Shown here: positions 19,099-63,349 of the stretch, in pieces
Numbering within the stretch: the stretch's first letter is position 1
Layout of the letters: each line of letters starts with the position of its first letter
Assembly: GCA_964106645.2 (NCBI GenBank)
Contig: OZ067047.1
Direction: 5' to 3' (one strand)
Length of the DNA: 64,000 bases
Source: Podarcis pityusensis
Lineage: Eukaryota
Made by a program: the position numbers and the translations under genes
The notes under the pieces: generated by a model
The model's input: only the letters and a program-made list of their open reading frames with translations
Told to the model about the DNA's origin: nothing
Database searches by the model: none

Positions 19099-19179
19099 TG
19101 TTGCATTCAGGCTTAAAACAGAGTTATAATTTGAGGAGCCGGTTCAACAGGCAGGTACTCCTCCATAACAAAAGGCTTG

Positions 19180-20886: not shown

Positions 20887-20976
20887 AGGGAGAGTATTAC
20901 CCTTGGGAGAGAGAACTTCAGCAAGGCCTCTGGCTTCAACGTCTTTCAAATGAAGAGGACACGGGTACATTTAAAG
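20887..20976 (+). CDS. MICAL3: Probable MICAL3 cassette exon EGEYYPWERELQQGLWLQRLSNEEDTGTFK, phase 1 to 1
   Basis: About 130 nt AG-free pyrimidine-rich run ending ctgctgtag; donor AAG|gtaccc; 90 nt, no stop in the required phase. Confidence 0.72.
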
Positions 20977-22441: not shown

Positions 22442-22579
22442 CTGGAAACCTGAGGCTGCAGCAGATAGTAAATCCGATTGATCCACTGGAGATCTTGGCA
22501 GATGTGCATTGGACACACATCCGTCAGAAAGAGGAGGAGGAAAAACTGGGCCCTACTTCTAAGTCCTCCACCTCCAGAG
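22442..22579 (+). CDS. MICAL3: MICAL3 coding exon AGNLRLQQIVNPIDPLEILADVHWTHIRQKEEEEKLGPTSKSSTSR, phase 1 to 1
   Basis: Acceptor tctgctag, donor AG|gtaaac; 138 nt; resembles the human DPLEIQADVHWTHIRE segment as recalled. Confidence 0.92.
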
Positions 22580-23843: not shown

Positions 23844-23935
23844 GGAGGCAGTGGAAGACAGAAGTGTCTGGTGTGCTCTGGTCCATGGGGTCACGAAGAG
23901 TCGGACACAACTAAATGACTAAACAACAACAACAA
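23844..23935 (+). mobile_element. RTE-BovB-type 3' end, extremely 5'-truncated
   Basis: gtccatggggtcacgaagagtcggacacaact plus (CAA)n tail; 13-bp TSD CATAACTACTGCG / CATATCTACTGCG. Confidence 0.85.
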
Positions 23936-26292: not shown

Positions 26293-26355
26293 CATCGGAC
26301 CTTCCCTCCATACGCCACGAGGCAGTGCAGGCGTGGCTGGAAGCAGTCCCAGGAG
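26293..26355 (+). CDS. MICAL3: Probable MICAL3 cassette exon ASDLPSIRHEAVQAWLEAVPG, phase 1 to 1
   Basis: Acceptor ttttaattcag, donor GAG|gtagtt; 63 nt; CpG-retaining coding-like island in AT-rich intron; three downstream TGCATG. Confidence 0.8.
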
Positions 26356-27896: not shown

Positions 27897-27965
27897 ATTC
27901 TGTGAACCGCCCTTAGACCTCCGGGCATAGGGCGGTATATAAATTCAATAAATAAATAAATAAAA
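27897..27965 (+). mobile_element. L2-type LINE extreme 3' end with (TAAA)n tail
   Basis: tgtgaaccgccc...agggcggtatataaat stem-loop then aataaataaataa. Confidence 0.6.
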
Positions 27966-28552
27966 TATATCTTGATAATGTTAACAGGGCAGTCATGGGA
28001 AATTGCACAATAGGTTGGGCAATTACAAAATTTCATTTTTTAAAAAGAGGATTTTCCAAAACGTTGCATCACTTAGCGCCAATTCTTTTAGTCTCTGAGA
28101 TGCTATATTCCAGCTTACCCAACCAGTGCTTGCTTTGGATAGTTGAACAGACCAGCCAAAGTCTGGTAAACATATGCCAAATATAACTGTGCTTTGAAAC
28201 TACTGCTTTGCAAGACAAAATGCACCCAACAGAAAACAAATCTGGTGTCATAGACTTTCAGATAAGCGATTTCAGGGCAGAGATGGGTAAAGTGAACCTA
28301 TTAAAAGCATCTGTGAGCTGAGCTACATGATCAGTAGTGTAATATAGTGCAACTCAAGGTTGGCTTTACGATTTCAAATGCAAATAGGTTCAAATGCTTC
28401 CATGTTTTGTTTTGTTTAGTTTAGTTTTTTTTTAATTGTTCTATATAGTTTTCTCTCAGACATGCTAGGTTTAATAAGCAAAGTTTGGTTTTATGGGGGC
28501 AGCATACAAACATACAGCACACCTCACTTTTAACTAGTGTAATTTTTGTCTT

Positions 28553-28630
28553 TGTTGGAAACCGCCCAGAGTGGCTGGGGAAGCCCAGCCAGATGGATGG
28601 GGTACAAATAATAAATTATTGTTATTATTA
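28553..28630 (+). mobile_element. L2 LINE extreme 3' end, same family as 8555-8974
   Basis: gcccagagtggctggggaagcccagccagat...ggggtacaaataa plus (TAT)n. Confidence 0.75.
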
Positions 28631-28801
28631 GTGGTATAGTTCAGCAAAGTCTGCATCACATGATATTGCTGTTTCTGGCACTTAGATCTTCACACACAAA
28701 AGTGGACTTCTGAAGAGACCACAGTACACCTTAGAACTTGAACTTACGTGGATCTGTTTTCTCCCCTACCCCCGTTTCTTTATGTATCATATTTATTCTA
28801 G

Positions 28802-28894
28802 CCCTGTGTGAGGAGAACGACTATGAAGATGAGGCAGGCACCGAGCCTGCAGAAGCTCTTGAAGATGGGGACACGGGTGCAGAGTTGGATGATG
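28802..28894 (+). CDS. MICAL3: MICAL3 coding exon ALCEENDYEDEAGTEPAEALEDGDTGAELDD, phase 1 to 1
   Basis: Acceptor ttattctag, donor G|gtatgg; 93 nt; GDTGAELDD matches recalled MICAL3. Confidence 0.92.
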
Positions 28895-29485
28895 GTATGG
28901 GACCGTGAACTCCCTAGTGTGTCGTCAGACATAGTTTCTGTAGTACAAAGACATGTCTCAAACGGGTGCAGTGGTGGTATTTTGTGCAAGACTTAGCAAA
29001 CCCCGAAACATTTGAGCTCAGTGCATGTGCTGTTTTAGCAGTGTGTGAATGTGTGTGGAGACAGTTGTAATTACAATTGTAATGTTTTATTCATTTGAGG
29101 ATTAGCGGTGCTCAAGAAAGCTTCTGAGATGAGTGGAGAGAACCTATTGCTATCAATATTGACCTAGAGCTAGCCATATGCTAAATGGGTATACAAAAGT
29201 AATAAAGGATAAGTTAATTATTCAGAGAATGTGCCAAGTCCTTCACCAGCAGATTGTTTTAATGGGGGGCCATTTTGAGAATCAGATGCCAAAGGTGAGC
29301 CAGCCACCCTCCGTCCATCTGTTTGCCTTCAAATCTTACTGTCACAGCCACCATTTCCCTTCACTCATCTCTCTTGACTCTGGGTTGGCAAGGTGAAATC
29401 TTACCACGAAGACACTCTAGATTTGCATGTCAGATCCTTTAGTTTTTGTTCTTCTCCTTTCCTTGCAAAAAACAATGGGGAGCAG

Positions 29486-29623
29486 ATGACATCCCATCTG
29501 ATGCAGAAGCAGAGTGCCGCTTGCATCAAGAAGAGGCAGAAGAACTGGAGCTGAAAGTCTCTGAAAAAGAAGAAGCAGAAGAAGAAGAAGAAGAGATAGC
29601 TGCCCCTTCCGTTGAGACAGAAG
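29486..29623 (+). CDS. MICAL3: MICAL3 coding exon DDIPSDAEAECRLHQEEAEELELKVSEKEE...VETE, phase 1 to 1 (start could be 29483)
   Basis: First AGs after the pyrimidine tract are GAG|CAG| at 29480-29485; donor AAG|gtacca; 138 nt; in frame with ORF 29446..29637. Confidence 0.85.
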
Positions 29624-33492: not shown

Positions 33493-35350
33493 GACTCAAA
33501 GGAGCTTCTTGCAACAGCACCCTGCAAAGATGAATCCCCCGATGTACGGTTTTTCCCTGAACCGTTCCTCCCAGGAGAGGAAGCGCAAGTCAAGATCTGT
33601 GATGACCAAAAAGTCAAAAGCCCACCTGCACCACTCTCTCCAATACGGTCCCAGCCAGTTGCAATGCCTGAGACTATCACACCAACATCTCCTGCAAAAT
33701 CACAGCCAGCAACTCCTGCAGCACCTGCATCTCCACCTGCAACCCCCTTGCCTATTTGTTCACAGCCTTTACCCTCTGGTGAAGCATCCATTCAATCTCC
33801 AGGGGAACCTGTGTGTTTCCAGCCAGTCCCAGCCTTAACCTCCACTCCTTTGGCCAAGCTTGCCCTAAAAAATCAAGATGGAGAGATGGAAAAATTGGGG
33901 AGCCCTACCACAGCAGAAGAAGCTTTGAAAAGGAATAATCTTGTGGAGGAGTTCTGGATGAAGAGTGCTGAAATCCGGAGGAGTTTGGGTCTCACCCCTG
34001 TGAACAGAAGCAGGGGACCAGAGCCAAGCTTTACCATTTCCCCCCTTGAGTCTGCCCCCCTGAAAACATACACCCCTGAGCATATTTCAGAAGAGAAGGG
34101 GATCCACATTGTAAAACCTCAGTCAGCCCCAAAGAAGCCAGTCACAGCGAAGCTAGACAGTGAGCAGTTTTCTTTGCTGACTCCAAAATCCCCATCAGAG
34201 AGAGAGCTGAAAAATTTGAGTGATGTTAAGAGAGAGCTGTCCAGCAGTTCTGGACTGGGTCTTCAGGGCAGTTCATCAAACATGAGAACATTGGCCAGCC
34301 AGAGTTTCAACACTTCTGATTCCACCATGCTCACTCCTCCATCCAGCCCTCCGCCTCCACCACCTCAAAACGAAGAGCCAGCAACACTGCGGAGAAAAAG
34401 GCACCAGGCAACTTGGCAGAACGAGGCTGAGTCTAAGCCGGCTTCTATGCAAACACCTCACCCACCACCAGCAGTCAATGAAAGGATCCGGCCAGCCAGG
34501 GAGCCATCCCAGCCCTCCAGAGAGGAGGTACGGAAATCATTTGTGGAGAGTGTAGATGAGATACCATTTGCCGATGATGTGGAGGACACGTACGATGAGA
34601 GGACTGAGGATTCGAGCATCCATGAAAAATATTACACGCCCCCCAGTAGACCGAGGCCAGAGAAGTCTCTTCACCTACATTTTGTTAAAGAGAATGGTGG
34701 GCCACCATCAATGGAAGGGGGAAGCCAGCAAAAGAGAGGCCTCCCTCAAGTCTCTGCAGAAGCGAAGGAGCTAGCGGAGGAAAGAATGAGAGCCAGAGAG
34801 AAGTCCATCAAGAGCCAGGCCTTACGCGATGCCATGGCTAAGCAGCTATGCAAGATGAAAGAGCTGGAGATGGCCAATGCTGCTGGTGCTGCCAAGTTGC
34901 ACAAGGCATCTACCATGCCTTCAAAGACCAAAGAGCTGTATTTTGAATCCCAGAAGCATTTGGGTATGAAAGCTGGCGAAGGCCCCACCCTGAAACACGA
35001 GGCTAGTAGTGACAGGTTCTTTTCACCCTTTGCAGACACCAGTGGGCGTGATGGGTCAGTCACATCCTCAGAAGGCTCTGGAGGGAAGAGTAAGAAAAGG
35101 ACTTCTCTCTTCTCCCCCCGCAAGAACAAAAAGGAGAAGAAGTCCAAGAATGACAGCAAGCTCTCTGACAAATCCAGCAGTGCGGCTGAGGAAGCCACGA
35201 AGCCCAAATCACTGTGGAAGTCTGTGTTCTCTGGCTATAAGAAAGACAAGAAGAAAAAGACAGATGACAAATCCTGCCCTAGTACACCTTCCAGTGGGGC
35301 CACAGTGGATTCTGGGAAGCATAAGGTGTCTCCAATAGTTAGAGCAGCAG
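33493..35350 (+). CDS. MICAL3: MICAL3 large Pro/Ser-rich exon (DSKELLAT...SPIVRAA), phase 0 to 1
   Basis: Acceptor tctgtgtag, donor CAG|gtatag; 1858 nt; contains most of ORF 33664..35433. Confidence 0.96.
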
Positions 35351-37089
35351 GTATAGTGTCACTGACTGCATTCTTTAGTGATTCCACTGTACCTGAAAAT
35401 CTTTTGCAGATTTCTTCCATGCACAGAATATGAGCCCAAGAGATATTTGAGCAATGTAACCTGTGATTTGGGAGGTGATTAAGGGGGGAGGGGAGAGATA
35501 AGCATAAAAAGGCAGAAGAGGAACAAGGAAAGCATGAAAAAAATAGTATTTTACAAAAGCATGGGATTTCTAGTTTTAGCTCGAGGAATCGGAATATGTG
35601 TTCCTCTGGATGTTCATGTACCTCAGTTCCAAGCAGTCATGGATGGTATCTGGCGAACAACACACCACAAGCTCCCTTTGAAGTGATGTATGCAAGGCAC
35701 ACGTATATTTTCTGTGGGAGCTTTCAGAGACTCCTTCAATTCTTGCAACCTCTTTCTCTTTTAAAAACGAAATTGTTGAAACAGCTTTCTTGTGGGAGGC
35801 TGGATGGGGGGGGGGCAGTTGCTCTGATGATGATTGAGAATTAGTCCCCTACTCCTAAGCAGCATATTCACAGACATGCACATTTGGGGGAGGAGTACAC
35901 AGCTACCCAGTTCTATCACTGTTCCCTGCCTAACTGGGAGCAGCTGTTTTATCCAAGTGCTCCAAATGGGCTACAAAAAAATCCCATGTGTGGCCTAGTT
36001 TTGTGAGGCATGACTGGACACATCCATGAGTTTCCATTTTGCTGCAACACCCAGACTCTAGGGATATTTGTATCAGCAGCAGTGTTAGGCTTGATGTATG
36101 AGTCATCGTTTTCTCCCCCCAGTTCCCATCTCAAGCCTGGTGAAGTCAGTATGAACAGTCTGCTTCATTGTCAACCAGGCTTGGGACTTTAGGATTAGGT
36201 GCATCTGGACTGTGCCCTGCTCTTATTTTAAGCCACTTGGACAAATCCGTTTGAAGGATAGTGTTCTGAGTGATCTGATGGTTTTCTTTCTCATATATTG
36301 TCTGACTCAGTTTATAACTTTTAAAATAGCAGGTTGATTATCTGGAGAATAAGTAATAAAGGTGCCTCAGACGAAATCAGAAATATTCAGCAACTTTCAG
36401 CTTGAGGCCCAGCTCATAAACTTCCATTCCAGTTGCAATGGTATCGGCCTAATTGGTAGCATACCTTCCAGATAACTTGCTTGGCGTGGAAAGAGTAAGT
36501 CCCAGCTGTTCTTCAAGAAACATCTACACTGCTTTTTGAAGAGGAGTATTGAAGAAGTATAAATCAAGGCATCTGAGAAAGTTACTAGTGGAGGTGCAAA
36601 AAGGTCATACTCTTAGATCTTCCACAGATTATTATAATTAATACCAGCAGCACGATATCTCTTTCCCATGTCATAGAAGAGGAGGGATGTAGTCTCACTG
36701 TAGGTAAAACAGGGACAGATAAACCTGGTGTGTATTTGCTTTCTTCCAACGAACTCATAGATGCATAAACACACACTCCTTTTTATCTTCACAACAACAA
36801 CAACCTTGTGAGATAGGCTAGGTGAGTGATGTGGCTCTCAGTGATGTGGTTAGAAATAAATTTAGAAATAAATTTCTTCAACATTAAAGAAATTGAGCAC
36901 ACAGATGTCAAAGAACACCATTAAAAATGGGGAGGGGGAAATCACAAATGGGTAGCTGCTCTAGTCAATGTAGCAGCTGTGGGTGGTGTGTTATTTTTTT
37001 CAGACTTTAAGAGTCTCATCATCTAAGTTCATTATGATGCCAGCTGCTCCTCTGGCTGTGTCATCTGATTTGTTTCTTTACCATCTCAG

Positions 37090-41228: not shown

Positions 41229-41279
41229 TCGATTTACGTCCCACACGCCTTGGCATTCAAGAGATCATACGCATCAAAG
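41229..41279 (+). CDS. MICAL3: MICAL3 51-nt cassette exon SIYVPHALAFKRSYASK, phase 0 to 0
   Basis: About 135 nt AG-free tract ending ttttaaag, donor AAG|gtagtg; peptide resembles an alternative MICAL3 segment I recall from other vertebrates. Confidence 0.87.
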
Positions 41280-45182: not shown

Positions 45183-45276
45183 ATTATCCAACGACAGCTG
45201 GAGCAAGTAGAAGAGAAGCAAAGGCAGCTGGAGGAGAGGGGAGTTGCTGTTGAGAAGGCTCTTAGGGGAGAAGCAG
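45183..45276 (+). CDS. MICAL3: MICAL3 coding exon IIQRQLEQVEEKQRQLEERGVAVEKALRGEA (bMERB), phase 0 to 1
   Basis: Acceptor ttttcccatag, donor CAG|gtacct; 94 nt. Confidence 0.96.
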
Positions 45277-48200
45277 GTACCTTCCAGTCTTCCATCTTGT
45301 GTTTTTCTTTTCTTACTACATTTTTATGCAAAGGTTCATAACAACCTGTGAGCTAGCTTTACAGACTGGTCCCTTCCTAAGCTGCAAGTTCTTTTATTAA
45401 ATTATCTTTTTAAACAAATGAATTAAAATTCACCATTTCCCTTCTCTATCAGAACTTGGGCTTCTCTGCCTGTGAAGCTACCTAAATGGCAAGTTCCCTT
45501 AGCCGGGTTTCATTTGCTCTGAAAATACGTTTCACCTCTTCAGGACAAAGTTTTGTCCAATTATTGCAAAAAGGTGGTAATGCATATAGGTTACCCATCT
45601 GCCTAGCTTTCCTTTAGGAATAAAACTTGGTTGTGGCAAGGAAGCTTCCACTTTGCCCAGCAAGATGAAAAAGAGAAGAAAGTAATTGATATAAATTTGT
45701 GTTTTTTAATTCACTGTGCCTTGAATCAGCATTAGCACCCTCATAAGGGACCATCACAGAACAGCCCCAGCAAGTATCACATGCTCTCTGCAAAATCATG
45801 CGCAGCTTCAAGGCGTGTGAAACAGAAATTCAATACAATATGTGAAACAGTTGTTGTCATCGTCATCTGCTGTTAATGGAATGAACCTCTACACTTGATG
45901 GCCTGGTCTAATGAATGGTACTTGGAATTAACATAGATGAAAGACATTAAGAGCAGAACTAGATGTTACTGCACACACAGGACTGCTACTGAAAACCCAA
46001 AACTCTGCATGTAGTCTTCTGCCCACACACCCTTCTTAATGCCCAGTGAAAATTGCTGTGCAACGTGATGTCGTCACTCTTGACTTTCCCTGCCTCCATC
46101 CTTCTTCATTGGGTGCCGAGGTGAGAGAATTCACTGCAAGACATTGCATGGTGAGTTTCACTAGACCTTACGAGGGAGGAAGAAGTAGTAATGAGAATAC
46201 TGTTTTACCTGTAGCCCTGTGTCTGCCATAATGTCTAGTTCACCCGTGGGAGAGAACATAGTTAGATGATGATTTCCTCACTTGACATATTCTGTCACTC
46301 CTTCCTTGAGAAACAAGTAGAGGCAAATACACAAAAGCCCAGGTTATTTCACATGATCCATTTACCAGAGGTGTAAGAGGCAACCTACTTGGTGAAAATG
46401 AATTTAACTTAATTTTGAGAATATGTAAAGACGAGTAACATTTTGTTATACTGACCTTAAGTTTGGGAGGGAAATGTAACTAAATTGACTTTCCTCAAAA
46501 CAGCCTGGAAGAATTGTTTTTCTGCTTTGTTTGAAGCTTGGATTGACACACTGAAATTTCCAATAGGAATGCGGTAGGATTATCAGTGACCGGACAATCA
46601 GTGCACTAAGAACAGATACTACCTGAACATTACACTTAATTATTACAATGTATTTCTTTTTATTATGATGTATATCCTGCCCTATTCTGAAATCTCCTGG
46701 TAAATAACATCCTATTTGAGACAGATTTAACAATATCAAAGGCAACACAGGATGAATTAAATTTTAATCCCTTGTGTGCTGTCCTTGACCACCAAATGCC
46801 ACCCCAGTTACAGGAGACTTTCCCTACCTGTGTTAGATACCCCGGTTTTGGCAAATCTTAAAAGATTAGGAATTCCATAATTGTGGATTAGCCCTCGGGA
46901 AGTCTCATGTATCCTTATAGTTGAAAATTACTTTGCAGAGAGTGGCCTACAGTGATCTTGGCACCTGCAAGGGAGCCCCAGGGAGGGAACTGTGTGGGAC
47001 TTAATCTCTTTAAGATTGAAACCAGCAACATCTAGTGCACCACAATCACAAACTGAGCATCATACCTTCTCCTTATTTTCAAAGGCAGTCTTCCCTAAAG
47101 CTTACATACAGATATTAACATTTTTGAGTTAATGAGTACACTTTGATAGTGCCATCACCACTAGCTGCCCAAACTTGCTTATTTTATCCTGCAGTTGACT
47201 CTGGTTTAAAATGCTTTTTTCAGGCTTTCAGAGTCATTCTTGTTGCATCATAGAGAATTTGATTGCCTCCAACTTGAAAGGGAGAGAATCTATTGAGAAT
47301 ATGTTTTGGTAGGACTGCAGAGTGCAGCTTTTTGCTAGTGGTAGCTCACAGCATCAGCTGGGGCCAAATCATGTACTCAGTCGAACTTAATCCCTGGAAT
47401 ACTTTTACAACTATTTAAATATTGTTGTTTAAATTGTTTCATAAAATGAATGCAGGTATATAGTTTTAAAAGAATAGAAAGAATTATGCACCTCTACATT
47501 CAACAGTCTACAGCCATCTCAAACTCTTTTCTTTTTTTTGTCACCTGACATTCATTTCATTGTCCCCCAGCATCCTTATAGGTGGTGTCATCAGAATTTG
47601 AGGAGCTTTGCAAACAACTGAGGGCTTTACTTGCCACACTTCATGGGCAGTGGTGGTGCTTTGGCAAGCAGAAAATTATTAGAGATGGCTTTAGATATCT
47701 AAAATGTGATGGGGAAGTGGAGAGGGAGAGACAAATGAAAAGGTTGGCTTCTTTTGGGGCCTCACAGGTGTGCCTATGAGTATTAATAATTGCCTTTTGA
47801 ATTCAGGATTTATAGCTGAAAGATGTCCATATTCAGTAATCCCATGAAAAATGTACTGTTAATGGGGCATGCTCTTGTTTCATGAGATGAGAGAATTATT
47901 AATTTTTTAGATTTTCATGTGCCTTAAAACCTCTTTTTCCTTACACACCTTCAATATCAGCAGTAACTTATTTCTGTATACTGTCCAAACAACCTTGACT
48001 GCCTTATGCAGTGTATATAGTATTGGCCAAACTGATATGCCTTGCAGACTACAGTTACAAAGCCTTATTCTCTTAATGGCTAGTAATAGGTTTGCTGGAA
48101 AAGGAGCTTCTGCTTTGGTAATGCAGATGGGAAGAGAACACCTTCCCCAAACTACCCATTCTTTATTGTTAAAACAGCTTCCTTGTGTATGAGTTAATTA

Positions 48201-48579
48201 GAATTTTGTGTCCATTTCACGCAAGACTTATTCTACATTGATACTGCTTCTATTGTTAGGAGCATTGCATGCACACTTTAACATGGGACAAATACACAAA
48301 AGCTCTCCTACTATGTGCACTTGTGGTGAAACAGACATGGTATGTGCTCATCATGTTGTAATAAACACACAGCATACATGCCCTTGCCGTATGTAGACGG
48401 CATAGACACTGTACATAGGAAGTGATTTTCTGCCTGGAGCACTTTTGTACACTTTCTATGCTACTTTATATATTGAAAACTAAAGTTCATCTTATTGTGT
48501 GATGTGTCAAAGGAACATACTTTGTGCATTCCATAAACAGCCCAATGCACTTTGGTATTCCAGGCAGAAAATCCAAGTA

Positions 48580-48830
48580 CAGTCGTACCTTGGAAGTCGA
48601 ATGGAATCTGTTCCAGAAGTCTGTTCGACTTCCAAAACATTTGGAAACCAAAGCGCAGCTTCTGATTGGCTGCAGGAAGCTCCTGCAGCCAATCAGAAGC
48701 TGTGGAAGCCCCATCAGATGTTCGGATTCCAAAAGAACGTTCGCAAACCAGAACAATCACTTCTGAGTTTGTGGCGTTCGGGAGCCAAAAAGTCTGAGTT
48801 CCAGGGCATTCAGGATCCAAGGTACGACTG
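48580..48830. mobile_element. Tc1/mariner (Tigger/pogo-like) MITE, 251 bp
   Basis: Perfect 15-bp TIR CAGTCGTACCTTGGA; flanks TA / TG; internal perfect 22-bp inverted repeat 48656-48702. Confidence 0.88.
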
Positions 48831-50284
48831 TGGTCCCCTTTACTACTTGGTAGTAATAATAATTAATTATAGTTCGGTGGCCTTTAATGGTTTTCCCCAA
48901 AATATCTGGCACCTGAGGCCAACTGGCTCAGTTTGCATAATAGAAGGTCCAAACCTGTCTTGACCCAAGTGAAATTTTTGAGCATTGGAACAACTCTGAC
49001 ACCAATTTTCTTGAGTCTGTCATGGTGCTTCCTTCTTAGGGGTTGAAACTAAAGTAACAATTGACATTTTATTTCTGATTAGAAATAAATTAATTTGAAA
49101 AGTGTTATCCTGGAAACACAAGGAAACCCTTTATGATGAGCAGTTCAGAGGATTTAAATCTTCCATACATATTTTTGTTCTCTTAAGTTAAGTGACCCTA
49201 AAGTCTGTTGCATACATCATTACTGCTTTAATAAGGCTCTTCATAGTTTACCAGAATGTATAAAGATTTCCAAATGTTATATACTCCCAGCAGACATTGA
49301 CATGATTATTAGGCATACTGGATGCCCTATTTAAACTGGAGGGGTTTTCGTTTGGGTCAGAATGGAGACTCTTTGTAGAACATAGTTATTTTAGGGGAAG
49401 AACCCTTACATTCTGCAGAAGGGGCACGGCAACTGCTTAGTTTTTCTTAGCTATATGGTGTTGAGTTCCTTGCCCAAATCCACACACCCCCGGCCCATGT
49501 GGCCATTTCATGTTTCCTACTTCTGACAACACATCCTATAAAACAGTATCTGCCATTTATGGAAAGTGATTGCAGGAATGTAGATGTGTGAGAAAAGTTA
49601 CCAAAGAATTGGCTATGCCCTTAGCCTTCCCAAGACCAATCTTACATGCAAGATCCCAGATTCCATTGGGCTTGTTTATGGATTTACCCCGGAGGTGAAA
49701 AAACTTACCAAAAAGAAGCTGCAAGAGTGAAGACCCTAGTACTTTTCTGGTTGCTTAGCCGACACAAAACAATGTAGCTGAATAAAAAGAAGGATGAAAT
49801 GAGAAGACCCAGCCCAACATCTTCCCCAGCTCTCTTGAATGGAGATGTATCCTTCCCCAAATTCCCTTCCTACTGGAGAATGCTTGTGGGTCCTTCCTTA
49901 ATGTCCCCCAAAATAACAGTGCAGTGTCTCATCTTGATACAAACCAGTATAGGTGACAAATCCTCATACAGAATCCAGCCTGCTCTCCTTCTCTGCCTGG
50001 AAATCCATGCCTGCCTGTCCTCCCTGCCTATTTACCAGGGAATACTTTATCCTCCCCCTGTCTTTACAGTATATACTGTATATATGTATGTGTATATATT
50101 TATTATAGAGTTGCATGATTTCTTGTTTCTTCTGTTTCTGTCTCTCTCTTTCCCTGTCTTGCTTCTCTTATGTATGCAATTTCTCTTACAGAGTGATTTG
50201 AATCCTGGGCAGGGAGTGGGGAGGGCTAGCAGGGGTGGGTACTTGAACCAATAACTCTCTCTCTTCACCGATTCCTTGTTGTAG

Positions 50285-50335
50285 ACTATTGGGGAGAGTC
50301 TTATTACAGTGACCTCATCGACTTGCACCTGGGTG
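50285..50335 (+). CDS. MICAL3: MICAL3 51-nt cassette exon DYWGESYYSDLIDLHLG, phase 1 to 1
   Basis: Acceptor ccttgttgtag, donor GTG|gtatgt; open in the required phase; ACTAAC at 50364. Confidence 0.85.
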
Positions 50336-50540
50336 GTATGTATGGCAGAACCTCTTTGCTGGCACTAACCCTGCTGACACCTGCTCCCGCCACCCTCTCC
50401 CTCCACCTACTTCTTTCCATCCCTGGCTCCTCACAAGCAATGAGAAGAAACCAGTCTTGCACCTAATTGATTGGCTAGGGCACAACCCCTTTTCCAGCTC
50501 GGAGGAGAACTAGCAGTCCTTAATGAGCAGTGTTTTGGAG

Positions 50541-50694
50541 TCGTAGAATCTCACAATTGCAGAGTTGGCAGGGACCCTGAGGGTCATCTGGTCCAACGCC
50601 CTGCAATGCAGGAATCCTGCTCACAGCCTTCCCAGGGTGGGCTCGAACCACCAGCCGTCTAGTTAGCAGTCAGATGCACAATTGGGCCATGTCA
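50541..50694 (-). mobile_element. SINE with tRNA-Asn-like head and CR1-derived tail
   Basis: Minus strand ...gactgctaactagacggcTGGTGGTTCGAGCCCACCCtggga, then a CR1 3' end. Confidence 0.75.
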
Positions 50695-53395
50695 CATGAA
50701 GTCTAGGTTTTTTGCAAAACACCCCAGTGACACGGGGCGGCGGGAATGGTTTCCATTGTGGTTTCCTGTAGGGAAAAAAAACAGGAATGAAAGTGGAAGA
50801 GATGTGCAGAAGTGCAGAGAATTTATTTCTCATCACTTTTTGAATATTAAACCCCTTCTCAAGGGTTGATTTTTTTACTCTTTTTTTCCACCAGGATAAA
50901 CCTCTGCAACAACTTAAAATAACCTTTACTGAGAAAGAAGTTTAATACTCAAAATTTGTTTGGCAACAAATTGTCTTTTGTACACATTTTGAATTTTTTC
51001 CTTTTTTATTCTGGGATTCACTGGAGGCCTGATCCAAAGTGTCACGTGCTGAGTTCTGTGCATGCACAGGGGACTCTCTTGTAAGCTGAGTGCCTTCTTT
51101 TTCCTCCAACACAATAATACTGGAGAAACCATTTCTGAAACATGGAGGTAAAAAACCCTGAGTCATCTCCTCCTCCTCTCTCCATTGGTGACATTTAAGA
51201 ATTTCAGTCCATGAAAGGTTATGCCATAAAAATGTGTTAGTATTTAAGGTGCCGCAAGACTATGTTTTTGCCGCAGTGTTCTAATTTGACTATCCTTCTG
51301 GCATTTAAAAATGTGTAGTGCCACATTCTTGTGGCAGCCAATGAAATGGAGGGGGACAAGGAAGTGCAATATTATATGTTGCATGTTTTTAATTTCTAAG
51401 CATTGCAGGGGATCCAGGAAGAGGAGAAAGAGAGACATGCGATTGCTGCTCTTGCCAGTGGTCAGCGTCTGCTGTGAAAAGTAGTTGTAGCTTGAATGTA
51501 GTTTCAGGTGGTGGTGCTGTAATGAAAAACAGAGGGACCTCTGGGGTACATGTACAAGACTTTAGCTAAAGGAGCTCTCTGGATCATGGCCTCTTTTCAA
51601 ACTTCATAATTTAACCTGGGGTAGCTAACCTTTGAGATGTTGTTGAACTACAGCTCTCATTAGCCCTGACTGTTGGCCATGCTGTTTGGGACTGATTGAG
51701 GGCCATAGGCTAGCCACGTCCAGTTTAGCCCCTAAACTTAGTTGTGCCATGCATTTTATTGATAAGTAAATCCAAGCTATTGATTAGATTTTTCTTCCCA
51801 AAGATAATCTAGCATTTATATACTTTATTCTCCCTCAAGGATTGTTCCCAACCCTCAAAGCAGTGACAGCTGCCCCCTCAACACACTTTGTTACACTTTA
51901 TAAGGACTATATTTTCTTTTTAAATTCTATGCTTCTTTAAATACTGTTACCTGTTATTGTAGGGGAAGTTGTACAGATTATCACACTTAATCTGCACTGC
52001 CAAACTACAATTTGAGTGCTAGAGTTCCTACAAATGGAAGGGTGGCCAGAAGAGTACACAAATGTTACACATGCCCTGTCATTTCTGAAATTAAAAAAGA
52101 GTTTGAACAAGCCCTCAGATGGTATTCACAGGCTCTTTCTCTTTCCTTGTGTAAAGTTCATCCTCAAAGATCACCACAACATGATATAGTTCCTATTCTT
52201 TTCTCTTTTTTTGTCTTTCTTCCCCCCACCCCCATATATAGTGACTTTTTTATGAATAACACCCCCCGCTCTGCAGTAATATTACAACTTTAACACAGGC
52301 CAGCACAAATTGTGTCCCATCAAGCTCACTGGTCATGTATTATGACATTGCAGGTACTTGATAGCCTTCCTGTTTTTGCAGTCTGGGGCAAAACAAAACA
52401 TCAGATGTTGCTTGAAACCCTGGTGGGCTACATTTGACATGGTGGGTTACCAGTCATGCAGGACTGATTCAACACATCTTTGGTACTACAGCTGTTTTCC
52501 AAGGTGTCTTAAATTCTGGTCCTTACTCCTTGGGAGTTGGTGACAGAAGGATGTATTGCCAAGTCTCCTTAAGGTGACTTTTGTATATCACTAATGTTTT
52601 TGAACTATAGCTGCGTCACTTCCATAAAAATCAAGCAAGCTACCCGTGTTCTTCAGACTGGCAGTTTGCAGGTTAAGGAGATCAACAGTGTTTTGTGGTT
52701 TCAACCCTCATAGTTTAGAAATAGGTAAGTGGTAGCCCAGGAGGTTATAGGCCCCCAGGAATTTCCTAACCTGGGCCTATCATAGTCCCAAATCTCAAAG
52801 GATCCCCCTTTCCTTATTTTGCACCTTTCCTCCATGCAAATGAGACATAGACCCTTTCTTCCCCATTGTGAGCAGCAAAATGCTCTGCCAGTTTTCTCCC
52901 TCCATACTTCAGTAGCCTAATACAGAGGTCAGTTTGGAGAGTTAAGTGCCTGAGGTCCTCGGCCACCAAACTATTTCTTGTTTTAACATGTTGTGGGAGA
53001 TAACAGAAAGATTTAAGCCCTTTCTCCATGCCTCCACTCACCTAGAGTCAATCAGTAGGTGGAGCAAATGCTGTTGGCTCTCCAGCCCTTGCTCAAAGCA
53101 AAATGACACATCCCTGCTAGAAAGAGTTGCTGGCTCCTCTCTGGAGACCAGTGCTCTGCCTATGTGGGGTTTCTTTCCAAGTGTGCCGCTAGGGGGCATT
53201 GTGTGCCCACAGACAGAGCTGTAAAAGGGTTAATGCAAAGTTACACCTAACAGGTCCTGCTCCTAGCTGATGCAGCTCCCACACTTCCTTCTCCCTCTCC
53301 CCTCCCCCCTTCCCTTCCTAATTCTCTCTTGAAGGCAGCAGTCTTGTCATTTTTGCTAACAGTGGCTTTAAAAAGTAGTCATCGGAGTCATTTAA

Positions 53396-53740
53396 AGGGA
53401 CACTGTCGTTTTTCACGTTAACTAACCTCACTTTCTGTCATAAAGAACTAGCATAAGTAAATTAATAAATCTTATTTGCTTCTCACGATTATATCCTTTT
53501 GTTCCCTACATTTCCTGTTTGGATAAATGTCTGCAATATTAGCTATAGTTACTTCTTCCTTACACTTTTGGGGTTTTAAAAGCATTTTTATTTTTTTATT
53601 TTTGCTAGTTTCAACTCCAGCCCAGATAGCGGTAATAATTCACAATTCCAAATGGAAGATCATTATTATTTTAATCTGTCTTGATTTCTTTCCTTTTTTT
53701 TAATCCCCAGCAGAAAACTTCACTACTTGGCAGTATCCCT
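53396..53740. mobile_element. Kolobok/T2-type MITE-like element
   Basis: TTAA-AGGGACACTGTC ... GGCAGTATCCCT-TTAA; 10 of 12 TIR match with TTAA on both sides; AT-rich interior. Confidence 0.6.
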
Positions 53741-55815
53741 TTAAATAAAATGCAGTGTTATGTGCAGAAAAAGACACACGTGGCTTTGTAGTGTTAGTTC
53801 TTTTTATACTCCTCTGTGACTGGTGTTTGTTCAGTACTTCCTCACAGGGCTGCCAGAGTGCTCAAGAGTCACTGTAGCATAGGGGCTAAGAGGCTGAACT
53901 GCGAGCTAGGGAATCCCTGGTTCAAACCTCACCTCTGCTGTTCTCACTGAGCCACCTTGGGGAAGTATGGGCTTAATAATGGCTGCCTTAAATGGTTGCA
54001 TATAATGTGTTTCTATGCCTGTTGTAATAGATATAATAGGATGATTGGTTTGAATAGCCAAGGCACTTCACAAAGCACCGTATAAATGCTAAAATTTATA
54101 TATACTTCTAAAGGCAGTGACAGAAAGTCCTCTCCTTCCTCTTGCCAGTAAATGTAACCAGTGGGTCTCAACCTGAATTGACTTCTGCATTCACAATGGG
54201 TTCTGCTCAAGATAAAGGAGGAAACATGTTCCAACCACGTTCTTGCCATTCCCTGGGCATATGTTCCTTTGTGAACCGGCTACTAAATGCTCTTGCTTTG
54301 ATACGAGAGAGATTCAGCGTGCAGGTGTATTCTTACGACCCCTACAGAAACAGTTGCTATGTATGTCAGAGATATATGCCACACCCGTGAATGCCTGCGC
54401 ATGTTCTTGTATGGCATATGCATGGCCTAAGAAATGTTCAGCAGTCATGGCTTGATTACCTGGTGAGTACAGGAGAAGGATGTTGTGCTGAGAAGGGGCT
54501 CAGTTCAGGCATTTCCTTCTCATCACTTTAGGTGTTCAGCGCCATCAGCAATTTCGGGTGCTGGCATGAAGGTGTCTCCCATTATTCTTGGTTTGGACTC
54601 CAATATCCATCATTGGAAGCGAAATTCCAGTGGTTTACATTCAGGGCTATCGGTGCTAAGCTCCAAACCCTTTGGTCAGACTCATACTCCAGCTGGGTCA
54701 GTGGGTTAGATGGAGGCAGATTGCACAATAAAGCCCAGCCATGGTATCACCAGACCTTAGCAAGGGGAGTCCGGAAAGCTGTGCCAGGATCAAACCAAGG
54801 TCAGAAGGGATCCGTCTAGTCCAAAAGTAATCCAGGGCAGCATTGGTAAGCTTGGGTTCAGCAACTGATGAACTCTAAGAAGGAAGCAGGGGGAGGCAAA
54901 GGAGTCAGGTTCAGAAGTAAGGAGCTGGATGGTGGATTGTCTTCAACAAGCAGCAGACTCCAAATGAAGCCTGATATAGCCTAGACTCCCAAACCATGCC
55001 ATCACCAGCTTCTGGTGCCGTAAGAGCCTTTGCTCTTGAGTTTTGTTAGCTACAATGAGCCTTTGACTCAATAATTACACAGCAACACTGCACTTCCAAG
55101 TGTGCATGCGCTCACTGACTAACTGCCTGGGCTGGATCTTCTGGCCCCAATGTCTTGGAAGCCTGAGGGGTTGATTCAGCCTCCCCCTTTGACTTTGCCT
55201 GGGCTTCTCTGCCAGGGGTGGCTCAGGAACACACTGCAAGGTCCTTTCAGAGCATCCCCTAGTAGTAAGCCTAGGCAGAGGCCTTCTGGTATACCAGGGA
55301 CTTCAGAACTGTCATTATGGAGGTGGGGGAAAATATTTCCGATCAGGAGGTCTTGATGATATTGGGTTGAATGCATGTTGTTTTTATCCTTAGCTTGTAC
55401 AGCAAATTAATTTTTAATTTTATTGTGTAATAGTAAAATGTATCCAGTAGCCAGAATCTTTTTGGATGTCTCTAAGTGATATTGGAATAATTATTTTTAA
55501 GCACTAGCAAACCAGGGCAAAAGAAGGCAGTGGTGTAGCCAACAGTATCAAGGAGTGTAGAGGCAGTACTGGTCTCTTGGCATGTAAGGAGTCAGTTCCA
55601 AGGACTCTGTAGCAGGTGGAAAACATGGTTATCAGCATTTGATGCCAATGCCAGGCTTATGGCTGAGTAATCCTGCACTGGAAGAAAGGGGAGGTATAAT
55701 TGATTATAAAACAGAGTTGATCAGAGATGGTGATCAGAACAGAGTTGATGCAGAGAGTCAAACACGGCTCAAATAGAAATTTATACTTCCCCACTTCTCT
55801 CTGGATTCACCTTAC

Positions 55816-55838
55816 CCAGATGGGCGGGGTACAAATAA

Positions 55839-55873
<35 letters not shown>
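55816..55873 (+). mobile_element. L2 terminal stub with (TAT)n microsatellite tail
   Basis: ccagatgggcggggtacaaataaat then about 11 TAT repeats; explains the poly-Y and poly-N ORFs. Confidence 0.75.
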
Positions 55874-55876
<3 letters not shown>

Positions 55877-56266
55877 ATGGTTCAGCAGTCACCCTTGCTT
55901 CAGTTCCCTGACTTGACTTTTTTGCCTGGTGATGCATAATGCAGGACACCCTTCTCCAGCTCTTGAGTGAATTCTTGAGTTTTGGAACATCTGATGCCAA
56001 GCTTAAGTGATCATATGATGCTATTATGCATGCTGATTTGAATACATCACACTTATTGGCTGATTATCAATATCCAGTGAAAAGGGGGGAAGGGGTGCTT
56101 CATATTTATTATATATCGCATACGGTATCATATGCAGAAGACTAACTGCAGCCAAATGTATGGAATTTGGGTTTGTATCCAGTGTTAGCATCCAGTGCAC
56201 ATATGTGTGCATGCATTTGTACAGTGGGTTTATCTGTTTTAAAGTTATTTTAGTGCTGCAATAATC

Positions 56267-56355
56267 TAGGGTTACCATATTTCAAAAACCAGGAGCTGGT
56301 TACAAAAATGCCAAAACAACGTGGTGTCCATGAAATCCAGACATACGGAACCCTA
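56267..56355. mobile_element. Minimal hAT MITE, 89 bp (TAGGGTT TIR type)
   Basis: TAGGGTTACCATAT ... ATACGGAACCCTA; perfect 8-bp TSD CAATAATC. Confidence 0.85.
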
Positions 56356-56484
56356 CAATAATCCACTGTAAGCTGTAGATGTACCTGTACCTAGTGCTTA
56401 AACAAAAGGGAGACATTTATAGTAATAAAGTAACATCTTTGGGTCTCATGCGTCTTACTGTCAACTTTTTTTGCTATAGTAATA

Positions 56485-56692
56485 CAGTTGTACCTTGGAC
56501 CCCAAACACCCTGGAACTCAGATGTTTTGGCTTCCGAATGCCACAAACCTGGAAGTGATTGTTTCGAATGCCACAAACCTGGAAGTGATTGTTTCGAATT
56601 GGCTTCCTGCAGCCAATCAGAATCTGCACTTTGGTTTTGGAAGTTGAACAGACTTCTAGAATGGATTCCATTCAACTTCCAAGATACAACTG
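56485..56692. mobile_element. Tc1/mariner MITE, same family as 48580-48830 in opposite orientation, with an internal 30-bp tandem duplication
   Basis: TA-CAGTTGTACCTTGGA ... TCCAAGATACAACTG-TA; CGAATGCCACAAACCTGGAAGTGATTGTTT twice at 56535-56594. Confidence 0.88.
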
Positions 56693-59600
56693 TAGTTCAG
56701 TTAATGCAAGATGACTGTGCATTGCATCAGAACTTAGGCACCTGTACTTCCAAGCAAACATGCATAGAACTGGATTCCAAGATTCATTTAGCTTGGGCAT
56801 GTTTGGGAAACATACACTAAATAATGATCTTTTGCTGGATGTATTCTTTGTGTTGGAACTCTGCAAGTATCTGAGCTACATAAGATCTATTTCAGTTCAT
56901 GTCCTAAGCAAAACAAAAAGGATGGTGTGATCATGTTCAAGTTTGATGCCTTGCTGCATGGTACTTGAAGGCATTTCTTGACCAAACCCAAAGTGAGTTG
57001 AGTTGCCGCTTGATCCTAGTTGGCCTAGCAAAAAGTTGATCAGGATCAGTCTAGTTTTTCAATAAGATATGTATTTCATAAATTGCTGCAGGCTTTTAAA
57101 TAGTCTCTCACTAGTCAGTTACCAGTGGTGAATCATCATCTGTTGGCAATGGGAGCTTTTATAAATTGTTAGACATTTTGTTCTGAGTGTACTTTCAGGC
57201 GGTCTGTGTGCTACACATAACTTGCTAATATAGGCATTTGCTGACGAGCAATAGAAATGTTTGCTGTCTAGTAGCCTTTGTGATCTTTTTTTGCTTTAAG
57301 TTCAGTGATGCGGAGAAAGGATTTATCCATTTATATTACTGAATTATCTGTATACATAATGGACTATTCAACACATCTTTACTAATCAGATGCTATGAAT
57401 ATTCTCTGAGGATTATCCATGGAGTTGGATAAGACATTCTATTGATGGTCCAGCTTCTGCTGCAGGTACTGTTGGGAAAAACATTGTAGCTATTGGATAT
57501 AGGTTTATTGACAACAGTAGCAAGAGGCCTGCCTACCGATGTGGTGGAATAAGCCCAAGAACCTCTACCCTCCATAGTTGATATTTCAGTCTGCCTTATC
57601 TCTTGAAACCCGTCTCTGCTTACTCCAGTATCAGACTCTGGGAGCAAGGGTATCCTGTGGTTCCAACTGACTTAGTTACACCCATAGATGGAGGGGATTG
57701 TCGGGGGGCTCCATGGAGACACTTAAGATATTATGTCAAACCATGCTTCGTACTAGCAGTGGTTTTGCCTCCAAGCTCAATTTACTCTTATCTCACCTGG
57801 AAAGCTTCAGGTGAGATCCCATGCAATGGCCTTCAAAATTGGGAGCTGGTCTGTGCTTGCATAGAGGTACTGTTATGTGAACTGGCATGTGCATGTGGGG
57901 CAGGAATGGGAAACCTGTGGCCTTCCAGATCTTGTGGGATTACAGATCCCATCAGCCCTAGCTAGCATGTGTAGTGGTCAGGAGTGATAGGAATTGCAGC
58001 CCAACGTCATCTGGAGGGCCACAGGTTCCCACCACTCATTCAGAATCTGTATCGCTGAGTGTGGCAGCTAGAACTAGGCTGCTGCAACCATGGAAGTGGT
58101 AGTAACTCCATATATAGCCTTGATACACACTGAATCTGCATAGAAGCCTGGTCTAGTTGCAGCCCAGTACACCATGGAATCCACCCAGTTCAAAGCAAAA
58201 CATAAAGGTCATCTTAACCTTAATCATGACTGAGGAAGAACTTCGGCAAATGCAAGAATATTCAGAGAGTATTTCCTTTGGTGTACAGCTTGACTGTGCA
58301 TTTTAGAACTATTTAATCCAATCAACCCACTTGTATTCTTGTATTTTTTACACATACTAAGAATGGAATATCTAAGACTAGGCCTTGAAGGAGACCTGTG
58401 AAGTAAAAACAAAGCACCATTGCATTGCCACTTTAAAGAAAAACCTGTGTGCATTGTTACACTACATGGATTTTCATGGATCTCTTTCCCAAGTGACAAA
58501 AATACTTTTAAGGCATTCAATTTGTTGGTTGTTTGGTTTTGTTGGAGGGGGGGGGAGAGAAAAAAGTTGTCTGGGAATACTATGGAATGTCTTCAAACAA
58601 GATGAGTCTTCACATACAGATGGGCACCATGTAACATGTATATGTGATGTACTTTTAACCCTTTTCACACTGAGTATACATGTTTCTTCCTGTTGAGAGA
58701 TTCACATTGCTCATTCACACACTATTTGCAAACTGATGTGCCTCCTCCCTTTTAACTTTGGTCTGTCCTGTGTGTTACTGCTCTAGTTCTGTGATGGTCC
58801 CTTCTAAAAGCTGTTCCCTTCCCAGACCTTATCTTCGTAAATGAGAACTGAGGCTTTCCCTCTCCATTATATGTGCATGTAGATCTGATTCCAGTGGGTT
58901 ATAAATGTCCTCTTTTTTATAAATTCAGTCACTCCTTATTACACAGTGGCATTTTTCTTTTACTTCCATTCTACTCACAGACTAGTCAATGGGCCACAGG
59001 TCTTTCTGTAATATATAGATCACTGGGGGTTAACAAAGCACCATGAACTGCACTACTCAAGCCCCAGTGATCAGCTGGTTGCTGGGACTTCTGTACACAG
59101 CAGCACCCAGTTCCTCATCCCTATTCTATAAGATTATTCATCTCTTTATGTATAATCTACCGCAATAATTCCCAAACCGAGGAATTCATTGGATAATTGA
59201 TGGTTCCCATAAGTGCCAACCCATAGGAAGAGGCTAGTCTCTGCATCAGAGTGTGTAAATTTGAGAAGTATTCCTGCCATTTTATTAATTTTTAAAACAA
59301 ACTACCTCTTTTATCAGAAATTTGGGAAATGTTAATTTACTTTGTTATATCTAATTAATTGCCACATACTCAAACTTCTCCCCCCCCCCATCAAACAAAC
59401 AAACAAAACAAACATACCAGTGGGGCATAGTCCTCAACTTTCTGTCTACCCTTGATATTGGCAGGGCCAGAAATACAAACTATGCATGAATATGTGTAAA
59501 ATACTGGTCAAGGCTTTGGTTAGACCCAGGATAGGGGAACATTTGGCCTTCCAGAAGTTGCTGGACTACAGCTCTCATCACCCTGACTGTTGGCCATGTT

Positions 59601-60284
59601 GACTGGGGTGAATGAGAATCCAAAAACCTTTGGGTCAGGGGGACAACAGTTTCTGTATCCCTGGTTTAGTCTAGGTTTGTTTGCCCATCATAGGCAGTCA
59701 TTCCTGTTTTGCGCCATGATCTGCCTTTGTTTACTAAACACATAATACTTGCCACTGTCAACCTACTTCCTTGGACAATGTCACAAAAAAACCACATGGA
59801 ATGTGCCAAGCTAATTTTCAAGATGGCCTTTTAAAACCTATTTGCTCTCCTGGTCTTTTAGAAACTTAATGTTGTCCACCCTCCTCTTAGTGCTTTTATC
59901 TCTTAACTGCACCATGTGACCTGGAGGGTGAAAAGTCACCAAGCACAAGAAATGTCAAATGTTGGCATTTCCCCATTATCCCAGTAACTTTTGTGGCCCA
60001 CACTGTTTCCCCTCCCAGTGCCACAGTCTGCTCTTCTCCATTATTCGTGTTGACAAAGGATGTTCCATCTGTAGACTGTTCCCCTTGTTTCTGCTTCTCC
60101 ATTTCTTGTATTATTATTTTCTTTTCTACTTCTTCTTGTTGTTTCCTTTCTTTCTCACTCTTGTGCTTTTTTGTCCTTTTGCTTGTCTGTTTATTTTCAC
60201 CCTGTTTCTCCTCCTCTCTTCCTCTCCACTTCCAACTTCCTCTTCCCTTCCTTTCTTCCTCTCCCATCTTTGGTTCTATTGAAG

Positions 60285-60350
60285 TTGAGCCCAATGCCGG
60301 GACACCACGCCGTAGACCTCTCTCCTTCTGCCCTTGCTGTGCCCATGAAG
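60285..60350 (+). CDS. MICAL3: MICAL3 66-nt cassette exon VEPNAGTPRRRPLSFCPCCAHE, phase 1 to 1
   Basis: About 208 nt AG-free pyrimidine tract ending ttgaag, strong donor AAG|gtaatg; within ORF 59993..60427. Confidence 0.87.
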
Positions 60351-62194
60351 GTAATGTAATTTCTTGCATTCCCTCCATTCCGTTCCCAAACCGCCATTGG
60401 ATTGGTGTAGAGACACTAGTGAGCTAGCAACAATATCAAGTGGCTCACCGCCAAACTTTTCTTTCCTTCAATCTCAAAGAAACCCTCTATAACAACCTTG
60501 TTATGAAGTGTGTCTGGCAGGATCGTAAAGGTACAGTATCCTTTTTTCAGCTGTGCATTGTGGGGATAAGGATAGTCTTGAAGTTTATTGGCGCAATTGA
60601 TCAGAAATGACTGAGGTGGCATCAGTTTCATGCCTTAAGGGTTCTGTTTGGCATGTTGGATGAACTTGCAGGGGAGTGCGGGGTGAGTCTACTTCCTTTT
60701 TAAAAAAAATACACATGGGTTAAAGGCATACTGTCTTTTGTAATGACTGGTTTCCCCAACAACCCTTGACTTTGAAAAGGCACCCTCCTGATCTGCCATA
60801 ATCCAGACTGGTCTCCTGCAGTCCGTATCTTGCTAAGCATCTTCTTTATCCCAAGTGGAACCAGATTCCCACTGAAGTGTTTCCATTTCCTAAGGCATGG
60901 GGGAAAAGGGGTGGAATGTGACCGCCATGTATAACTTCGGCTAACCACTCTCTCTGCTTTTCATGGTGTGCTTTCATCAAGTGTTCATCTTTCCTCCCCA
61001 CCCCTGCCTCTCCCTCTGCTCATTGGCTGTCTAAAAATAATAATAATAAAATATATCTACATCCCACAAATGAACAAAAGTTTCCATAGGTCAGTGTTGA
61101 GATGTATTTGGCTGTTTTGTGCAGAAGTTTCTTTTCTGATTATCCTCACAGTGGAAAGGGTGGGGAGATTCCCCAGTGCTTCTCATGGCTCCAATGCACT
61201 GGGCATCTGCATGTGTAAGCTTCTTCTCTCTTTCCACCATGGCTATGAGGGCACCTTGTGCAGAGATGCTCAGAGAGGCTTAATTGGGACCAAGCAATGG
61301 ATAGGTATAGCTATCCACAGCCATGATTGGCTAGGGTGAGATTTTCGTACTGTGTATGTTTGCTTCTTGTGTTCTGGAGCTGTGTTGGTGGTTTTGGAAG
61401 AGGAGGAGAATTCTCGTTACCTGAGAATAAGTGGTAGGAACAGGGCCACCAAGAACCTCTGGACCACTTTGTTTTCTTGACCGTGATGGGAAATAATGTC
61501 TTGCTGCATAACGACATCCTCAGTTACAAATGACGCATTAGTCAGTACCATCCAGTACTGATAAGCACTACCAGGAACAGATAATAATGCTTTGGTAGCT
61601 GGATCTGACTTGGTAGCTGACCATCCCCATTCTAGAGTGTCTCCCTTGGGCTTCCATAACCCCATGAGTCTGCATTTTTGAATAATTAGAATAGTGTCTA
61701 ATACAAATATTTTGCCATTTGCACATAAGTAGGCACAAATTTTGCATCATATTTTCCTTAGAATAGATGTTCCAATTAGTTTTATATGAGATGAGAACTC
61801 ATCTATGGTATGGATGAGAAACAGGAGTTAACCCTGTCTGCAACTTGACTGTGTTCTTTCCATATACTAGTTTCCTAAACTATTGACACCTCTGATAGGA
61901 TGGTGAAATCTGATAGGGACAGGAAACAGCTGGAATCCCTCTGGGCCTACAGTGGTTAGGCCAAGACCCTGATCATCTGGAGCACATAACCAGGGCTTCA
62001 CTTGCTTCCAAACTGATTTTTAGGATCTGAATCCAAACAGCTACCCATAAAGAGCTGCATATTTCATTACTAGATATGGGTTGTGGATGTAGCTCTCTAA
62101 AATAACATAAAATGGCTATGCTGTTTATTTCATCTCAGGCTTTGCTACTGGGTCTACTAGCTTGGTTTTCATTGATTAAGCTTTTATTGAAATA

Positions 62195-62427
62195 CAGTCA
62201 TACCTCGGGTTGTGAGCGCTGCGGGTTGCGTGTTTTCGGGTTGCGGACCGCGCCAAACCCGGAAGTACCGGAGCGGGTTACTTCCAGGTTTCAGTGCATG
62301 CACAGAAGCGCAAAATGATCCCATGCGCAGAAGCGCTGAATTGCTTTACATGCGTGCGCAGATGCGGCATTGTGGGTTGCAAACGTGCCTCCCGCACAGA
62401 TCACATTCACAACCCGAGGTATGACTA
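62195..62427. mobile_element. Tc1/mariner (Tigger-like) MITE, CpG-rich, 233 bp
   Basis: TIR CAGTCATACCTCGGGTTGTGA matching 20 of 21; TA on both sides. Confidence 0.88.
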
Positions 62428-63249
62428 TACCTGGGAAGGTACCATGCTTCCTCTTCCTTTTTATGTGAACAGATTTTCTTCTTGTGCTTTTCTACCATGA
62501 ACTAGTGGTCTTGAGCTGGTGAACTTCAACTGATTGAACCTGTATTTATGCCACACATTCTGTGTTTTTTGTTTAAGTGAGGGATCTCAAGCAGACACAT
62601 TGAGGCAGATCTGCCTGGTGTGACTGATGAAGCCAAGAGGAAGGGAAATTATTGATAGCAGTGGTCAGGAACTGGTTGCTTTCAGTCATTAAGTTAATGC
62701 AGGTGGCTTGAAAAGGGGAGAGCACAGCACGTAAGACTTCAATACTGGTAGGAGCCAGAATCAACTCTGAAACAGCCCACCAAGGAACTGTTCACTAATC
62801 GCTCTATAGTTATATGTAAAGTGGACAAATGGGTGTTGAGTAAGGTGTGAGTGAGAAAACATGGCTTGAAACAGGTAGGCTTTGTTGGAAAGTGTTGAAA
62901 AGTGTCAGACCTATGTTTGAAAGTGTCCAAATTGAAAAGGGCAACAGAAGAAAAATACTGAAAATTATGGCTATTGGTTTGGCGGGAGATGTGATGGGGA
63001 AGGTAGATTCAGGGCACATGGATCCAGTGGGTTTTTTTTTTGTTTCTTTTACTGGAGGTGACCCTCCTTCCTGTGTGCCATAGACAAACTAAACAAGCAG
63101 ATCTGACAAGAGTGCTCTGGCAGCATCTAGCTCAGCTTTCTTTGCACATTTTGCCCCACTCCCATTTTTGTTCCTGCCTGCCTGCCTGCTGGATTTATGG
63201 AAATGGCGGGAATCTTTCTCCAAGCTGACCTAAACTGTTCTCTTGGCAG

Positions 63250-63349
63250 GCATGGGGAAGAAGGACGACCCCAAGCTGATGCAGGAGTGGTTCAAGCTGG
63301 TGCAAGAGAAGAATGCCTTAGTGCGCTATGAGTCGGAGCTCATGATATT
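63250..63349 (+). CDS. MICAL3: MICAL3 coding exon [33 protein letters not shown] (bMERB), phase 1 to 2
   Basis: Acceptor tctcttggcag, donor TT|gtgagt; 100 nt. Confidence 0.97.

Follow-up and report, generated by a model that had tools for sequence, protein, structure and literature searches.

Ancient optional exons in the bMERB hairpin loop of MICAL3 as possible tuners of its off-switch and location

What might be gained by making part of the bMERB domain of MICAL3 optional? The question is raised by the window analyzed here, a stretch of 64,000 nucleotides from the lizard Podarcis pityusensis (assembly GCA_964106645.2, contig OZ067047.1), in which an intron of about 18 kb, starting at 45277 and read on the plus strand like every feature below, separates two exons of this domain and holds several small cassette exons. 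The gene, for an enzyme that dismantles actin, is MICAL3 of a lacertid lizard: a single exon of 619 codons (33496-35352) encodes a peptide 99% identical to MICAL3 of Podarcis raffonei and 97-98% identical to that of Zootoca vivipara, and orthology is further borne out by the listing of PF12130 and by an agreeing exon order. Upstream MICAL3 exons lie at 14788-29622, and lacertid MICAL3 models span 2014 to 2317 amino acids, which suggests that the long linker holds more optional exons. In the sections consulted, a review of the family only notes that splice forms exist (PMC9982024), and the MICAL3 regulatory-domain biochemistry and structures that we consulted used the insert-free form (PMC5026484; PMC11315924). 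In the literature searched, which covered few subscription papers, the function of inserts in this bMERB loop of MICAL3 is not the subject of any study found, and exon B (below) is nowhere mentioned; supplements may still list these exons.

The interval is bounded by two constitutive exons, exon U (45183-45276, 94 nt), which encodes the end of bMERB helix 1 and ends in phase 1, and exon D (63250-63349, 100 nt), which encodes the loop end and the first half of helix 2. Between them lie three cassettes: exon A (50285-50335; 51 nt, 17 amino acids, acidic and aromatic), exon B (60285-60350; 66 nt, 22 amino acids with an Arg cluster, a Ser and three Cys), and, 129 nt past B, exon C (60480-60530; 51 nt, 17 amino acids, one Cys). 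A preliminary description of this DNA had proposed A and B and missed C. For the two exons that it named, the coordinates, splice ends and reading frame all hold, and their peptides and those of both flanks translate where it had placed them in the 18-kb phase-1 interval. On inspection, AG acceptors and GT donors are found on U, A, B, C, and D; each cassette is stop-free, has a length divisible by three and carries equal phase on both sides, and the reading frame stays open in all eight combinations tested. A crude scan of the intron for open, frame-keeping segments between AG and GT returned 20 candidates including A, B, and C, and we therefore rejected such a scan as proof of exons. The reality of A and B is accepted because they are conserved and annotated; their splice signals by themselves would not set them apart. 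Exon A is acidic and aromatic as described (net charge -4, four aromatic residues), while exon B had been called basic and Cys-rich: its three Cys are present, but with three Arg and a net charge of +1 it is basic only locally.

Both exons are already known to annotation. Among 120 MICAL3 proteins listed, 119 contain both flanks, and between these flanks 35 have no insert, 23 have A, 12 B, 37 A+B, nine B+C, and three A+B+C. In a wider set of 389 proteins the flank pattern was matched by 217 (the other 172 being fragments, paralogues, or proteins with other ends), with A+B in 69, no insert in 47, A in 45, B in 36, B+C in 14, A+B+C in five, and another arrangement in one. Inclusion and skipping are annotated within one species in both P. 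raffonei and Zootoca vivipara, and the 10 P. raffonei RefSeq models examined (XP_053261183-196) comprise insert-free (two), A (one), B (one), A+B (one), and A+B+C (five) forms. This isoform evidence consists mostly of predicted gene models rather than direct reads; the RefSeq isoforms of the two lacertids come from the same gene and have inserts identical to those of the window, but they are predicted models with no tissue pattern or function attached. The four combinations foreseen in the preliminary description (none, A, B, A+B) thus all exist as P. raffonei models, and its insert sizes of 0, 17, 22, and 39 residues are real but incomplete, with the models adding a second 39-residue form (B+C) and one of 56. 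It had called the exons the most system-like signal in the window; they do not constitute a new system, since the isoforms are RefSeq models already. Exons A and B are real and annotated, cassettes of a well-known type at a position that hints at a mechanism, and their value lies in the sharp and cheap test that they offer.

That similar exons would be predicted in other vertebrates is borne out as far as the jawless fishes. One lamprey MICAL3 has homologues of both A and B, four of five hagfish models have an 18-residue A, one or both exons occur in teleosts and sturgeon, and homologues of B span lamprey to primates. The exon A peptide of the lizard recurs unchanged in turtles, a bird and the orangutan; its identity to the lizard is 17/17 in these amniotes, 11/17 in catfish, 9/17 in smelt, and 5/17 in lamprey, with the first three residues kept as far as lamprey and hagfish. 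All nine distinct variants of exon B share two Cys (the first and second), the Ser, and an Arg at -3, and eight of them also have the third Cys, giving an invariant motif R-x-L/I-S-F/L-C-x-C. The complete identity of A from lizard to orangutan and the persistence of the B motif since lamprey indicate purifying selection. Other MICAL-like representatives, judged from their sequences to be paralogues or invertebrate forms, have short loops with no such inserts. The teleost-type mical3 representatives (P0225, P0227, P0228, P0230, P0235, P0365-P0370) all have a homologue of A and none shows B, and in some fish paralogues exon A may be included almost constitutively.

The position of the inserts is given by the structure of the human Mical-3 bMERB domain (PDB 5SZG; PMC5026484), which is the same domain with the same fold but was solved and titrated without any insert. 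The exon U peptide matches residues 15-44 of its chain (E 1.3e-9) and the exon D peptide residues 45-77 (E 4e-17), so that the two abut at residues 44/45, seven to eight residues short of helix 2 by the boundaries that the source gives (PMC5026484). Predicted models of homologues agree. In a python MICAL3 with B, helices are predicted at 675-734, 766-814, and 823-870, the insert lies in a loop predicted with low confidence (block pLDDT about 55), and the model superposes on 5SZG with a TM-score of 0.91 and an rmsd of 1.6 Å; in a teleost-like protein with a homologue of A, the helices are likewise predicted intact, with two short helices within the insert (pLDDT 64-73). By these chain matches and models, which keep the three-helix bMERB fold in the presence of inserts, insertions of 17-56 residues fall in the loop that joins helix 1 to helix 2, as the preliminary description had proposed.

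What this loop does is known from insert-free proteins. Two-site binding of Rab8-family GTPases has been demonstrated for the human domain: site 1, of low affinity (KD 4.4 uM in Mical-3), is made of helix 1 along with helix 2's first half, and the high-affinity site 2 of the second half of helix 2 and helix 3 (PMC5026484). In MICAL1, site 1 is formed by L956, E964, and V971-V985, with the loop glutamate E964 contacting Arg70 of the Rab (PMC5026484). The CH and LIM domains of MICAL1 dock in a groove formed by L945/V950/L952/L956 and L974/V978, which hides site 1; a second Rab bound at site 1 turns helix 1 away from the catalytic domain, and interface mutants of MICAL3 behave like those of MICAL1 (PMC11315924). 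Under a gapless mapping, which assumes no gap across the loop, the insert falls between the equivalents of MICAL1 residues 960 and 961, placing it by this mapping four residues from a leucine that contacts both CH/LIM and Rab. The loop belongs to the N-terminal Rab site, that of low affinity, and to the groove where CH and LIM dock; the high-affinity site is left untouched.

We therefore consider, as the best of the readings weighed and one to which we give somewhat less than an even chance, that these ancient optional exons of MICAL3 are plug-in tags which tune its off-switch and its location and not its choice of Rab. The loop would form the tip of a hairpin on which CH and LIM dock while the enzyme is closed and to which the second, low-affinity Rab binds to free the catalytic domain, so that an insert at this tip would shift the activation threshold. 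Exon A could contribute a small stretch of acidic and aromatic character that modifies site 1 or brings in a partner, and exon B could supply a cluster of S-acylatable Cys, gated by phosphorylation of the neighboring Ser, as a membrane anchor. Two exons conserved since the earliest vertebrates would then be placed at the hinge governing autoinhibition and binding of the second Rab; should they fix the activation threshold or provide a lipid anchor, splicing that differs by tissue would control where actin is oxidized. Against such tuning, both predicted models keep their three helices unchanged, and the loop may be passive.

The unaltered helices also suit an account in which the inserts dock tissue-specific partners while autoinhibition and Rab binding stay as they are. 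Such docking is in keeping with the prediction of the inserts as exposed loop or short helices and with the invariance of exon A across amniotes, its first three residues extending to lamprey and hagfish as a binding motif would; the proximity of the mapped site to the leucine shared by CH/LIM and Rab speaks against leaving those contacts unaffected, and we regard this account as unlikely, though worth keeping in view. The preliminary description had suggested that splicing may reprogram Rab selectivity, localization or redox sensitivity. Part of the first survives, in that the loop is within Rab site 1, where E964 of MICAL1 meets Arg70 of the Rab, and exon A is acidic, but the high-affinity site and the contacts that determine subfamily preference in Mical-cL lie outside the loop, and site 1 of MICAL3 is weak (PMC5026484). 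With the high-affinity site elsewhere, a shift in activation threshold or localization is a likelier outcome than a switch of Rab, and a change in selectivity seems to us improbable.

The proposal that the inserts tune location is most specific for exon B. In all nine of its variants, basic residues and a Ser of the basophilic-kinase consensus type stand beside clustered Cys; the Arg cluster and the hydrophobic neighbors fit acylation sites. A precedent is the STREX insert of the BK channel, which is also spliced in, is conserved in vertebrates, and unites clustered Cys with basic residues and a Ser targeted by a kinase, the basic residues and the Ser preceding palmitoylated Cys (PMC3256903). 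STREX and exon B are unrelated in sequence and protein, and acylation is demonstrated for the former and putative for the latter; moreover, STREX has 11 basic residues of 21 where exon B has three Arg and a net charge of +1, which falls short of an extended polybasic domain (PMC3256903). The motif of exon B thus resembles a phospho-gated S-acylation cassette in its possible manner of working only. Carried further, exon B would be a splice-in lipid anchor that predates the split of lampreys and jawed vertebrates, undergoes S-acylation gated by phosphorylation of the adjacent Ser, tethers MICAL3 to membranes and props open the hairpin that keeps the enzyme shut, with exon C adding a fourth Cys; we hold this specific form to be rather unlikely. 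If it were true, cells that include exon B would oxidize actin with less or no Rab input, and the loop would still be recruiting exons, lacertid C among them. In the parts of four palmitoyl-proteome supplements that were covered, no exon B peptide was seen; two of the four have no Mical3 row in those parts and the others show the canonical entries Q8CJ19 and Q7RTP6, which are likely insert-free. Searches confined to supplements (PMC4801060; PMC5498535; PMC5468251; PMC12874130; PMC13380729) gave nothing assignable in the portions covered.

The same Cys might instead form a redox or metal sensor (disulfide or zinc) and not a lipidation site. Three clustered Cys retained since lamprey would be apt on an NADPH-consuming oxidase, but the trailing His is missing in primates, lamprey, and two teleosts and the hake has Trp at the third Cys, so that no constant metal site is retained, and the Arg cluster with its hydrophobic neighbors fits acylation sites. 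A zinc site including this His was rejected for the lack of conservation, and we doubt the sensor strongly. Readings of exon B as a cyclin-, PP1-, or CDK-type motif were set aside as of low specificity and partly unconserved.

Exon C follows B in all 19 proteins that contain it. A search with the B-C region found 14 proteins among 1278 candidates, of which 12 have C, all from Zootoca or P. raffonei, the remaining two being macaque forms with B only; within this annotation-limited material, neither the 14 proteins nor 17 shorter hits include C outside lacertids. Its peptide is identical in the two genera, and C is probably a recent addition to B within lacertids.

Signals for regulated splicing differ between the exons. 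Directly after exon A, at 50357-50405, lies a cluster of four YGCY, one ACTAAY, and three CAC pairs, all less than 70 nt downstream; these are motif matches only, which we take to be candidate MBNL, QK, and RBPMS sites, and TGCATG does not occur within 300 nt downstream of the exon. Exon B is preceded by a pyrimidine-rich, AG-free zone of 208 nt (60075-60282), compared with 23-50 nt at U, A, C, and D, and a similar pyrimidine tract is seen in genomic read-through ORFs of other species; the zone likely reflects a distant branch point and PTB-type control. In rat cells, a 51-nt Mical3 exon flanked by exons of 94 and 100 nt is recorded, with a PSI of 0.14/0.14/0.06 that falls to 0.03/0/0 on RBPMS overexpression (PMC6613909, supplementary file 3). 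The introns around it measure 4409 and 10007 nt vs. 5008 and 12914 in the window, and from the flank sizes we infer that it is the orthologue of exon A, alternatively included (PMC6613909). Its low PSI, the loop length of 8-18 residues among distant MICALs, the confinement of exon C to models of two lacertid species, and the lack of any insert in all five UniRef models of P. muralis would suit tolerated loop insertions of little effect on the protein, with C a low-level or artefactual model exon, but purifying selection on A (17/17 from lizard to orangutan) and on the B motif since lamprey, together with the identity of the C peptide in two genera, makes this very unlikely.

A further exon complicates the literature. 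Exon X (41229-41279), which the preliminary description also missed, is a 51-nt, phase-0 cassette just upstream of bMERB that is present in 125 of 195 proteins scored; TGCATG follows it at +34, +121, and +202 (0.2 are expected per 300 nt), and it has a 135-nt AG-free zone and one ACTAAY. A smooth-muscle Mical3 exon, likewise of 51 nt and 17 amino acids, has been reported to adjoin the coiled coil and to be activated by RBPMS, RBFOX2, MBNL, and QK, with the speculation that it modulates autoinhibition (PMC12721327). As three TGCATG lie downstream of X and none after A, we judge that this exon is probably X, which fits better than A; it matches A in length and differs from it by its coiled-coil adjacency (PMC12721327). 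Two observations count against X: it is absent from the three Mical3 rows seen in the RBPMS table of PMC6613909, and the flank of exon A carries motifs of the RBPMS, QK, and MBNL types. Were the smooth-muscle exon A after all, the autoinhibition idea for A would already be in print (PMC12721327). Up to three different 51-nt MICAL3 exons (A, C, and X) thus lie near bMERB and may be confused in the literature. The Mical3 exons of the PTBP2 and CELF1/ELAVL1 papers are given no coordinates in the parts consulted and are not assignable (PMC3896118; bioRxiv 10.1101/373704), nor are the MICAL3 events in the consulted parts of PMC4465641 and PMC13059153, which are other or unlocatable; the three files covered of a mouse tissue splicing supplement gave no hits.

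Finally, some models end within the interval. Those of macaque and Rhineura end after B, and one orangutan model ends after A. In the window, over 60351-61050, read-through from exon B meets 25 open codons before a stop; AATAAA/ATTAAA occurs just once between B and D, at 61045. Use of B or A as a terminal exon, which is possible, would delete helices 2 and 3.
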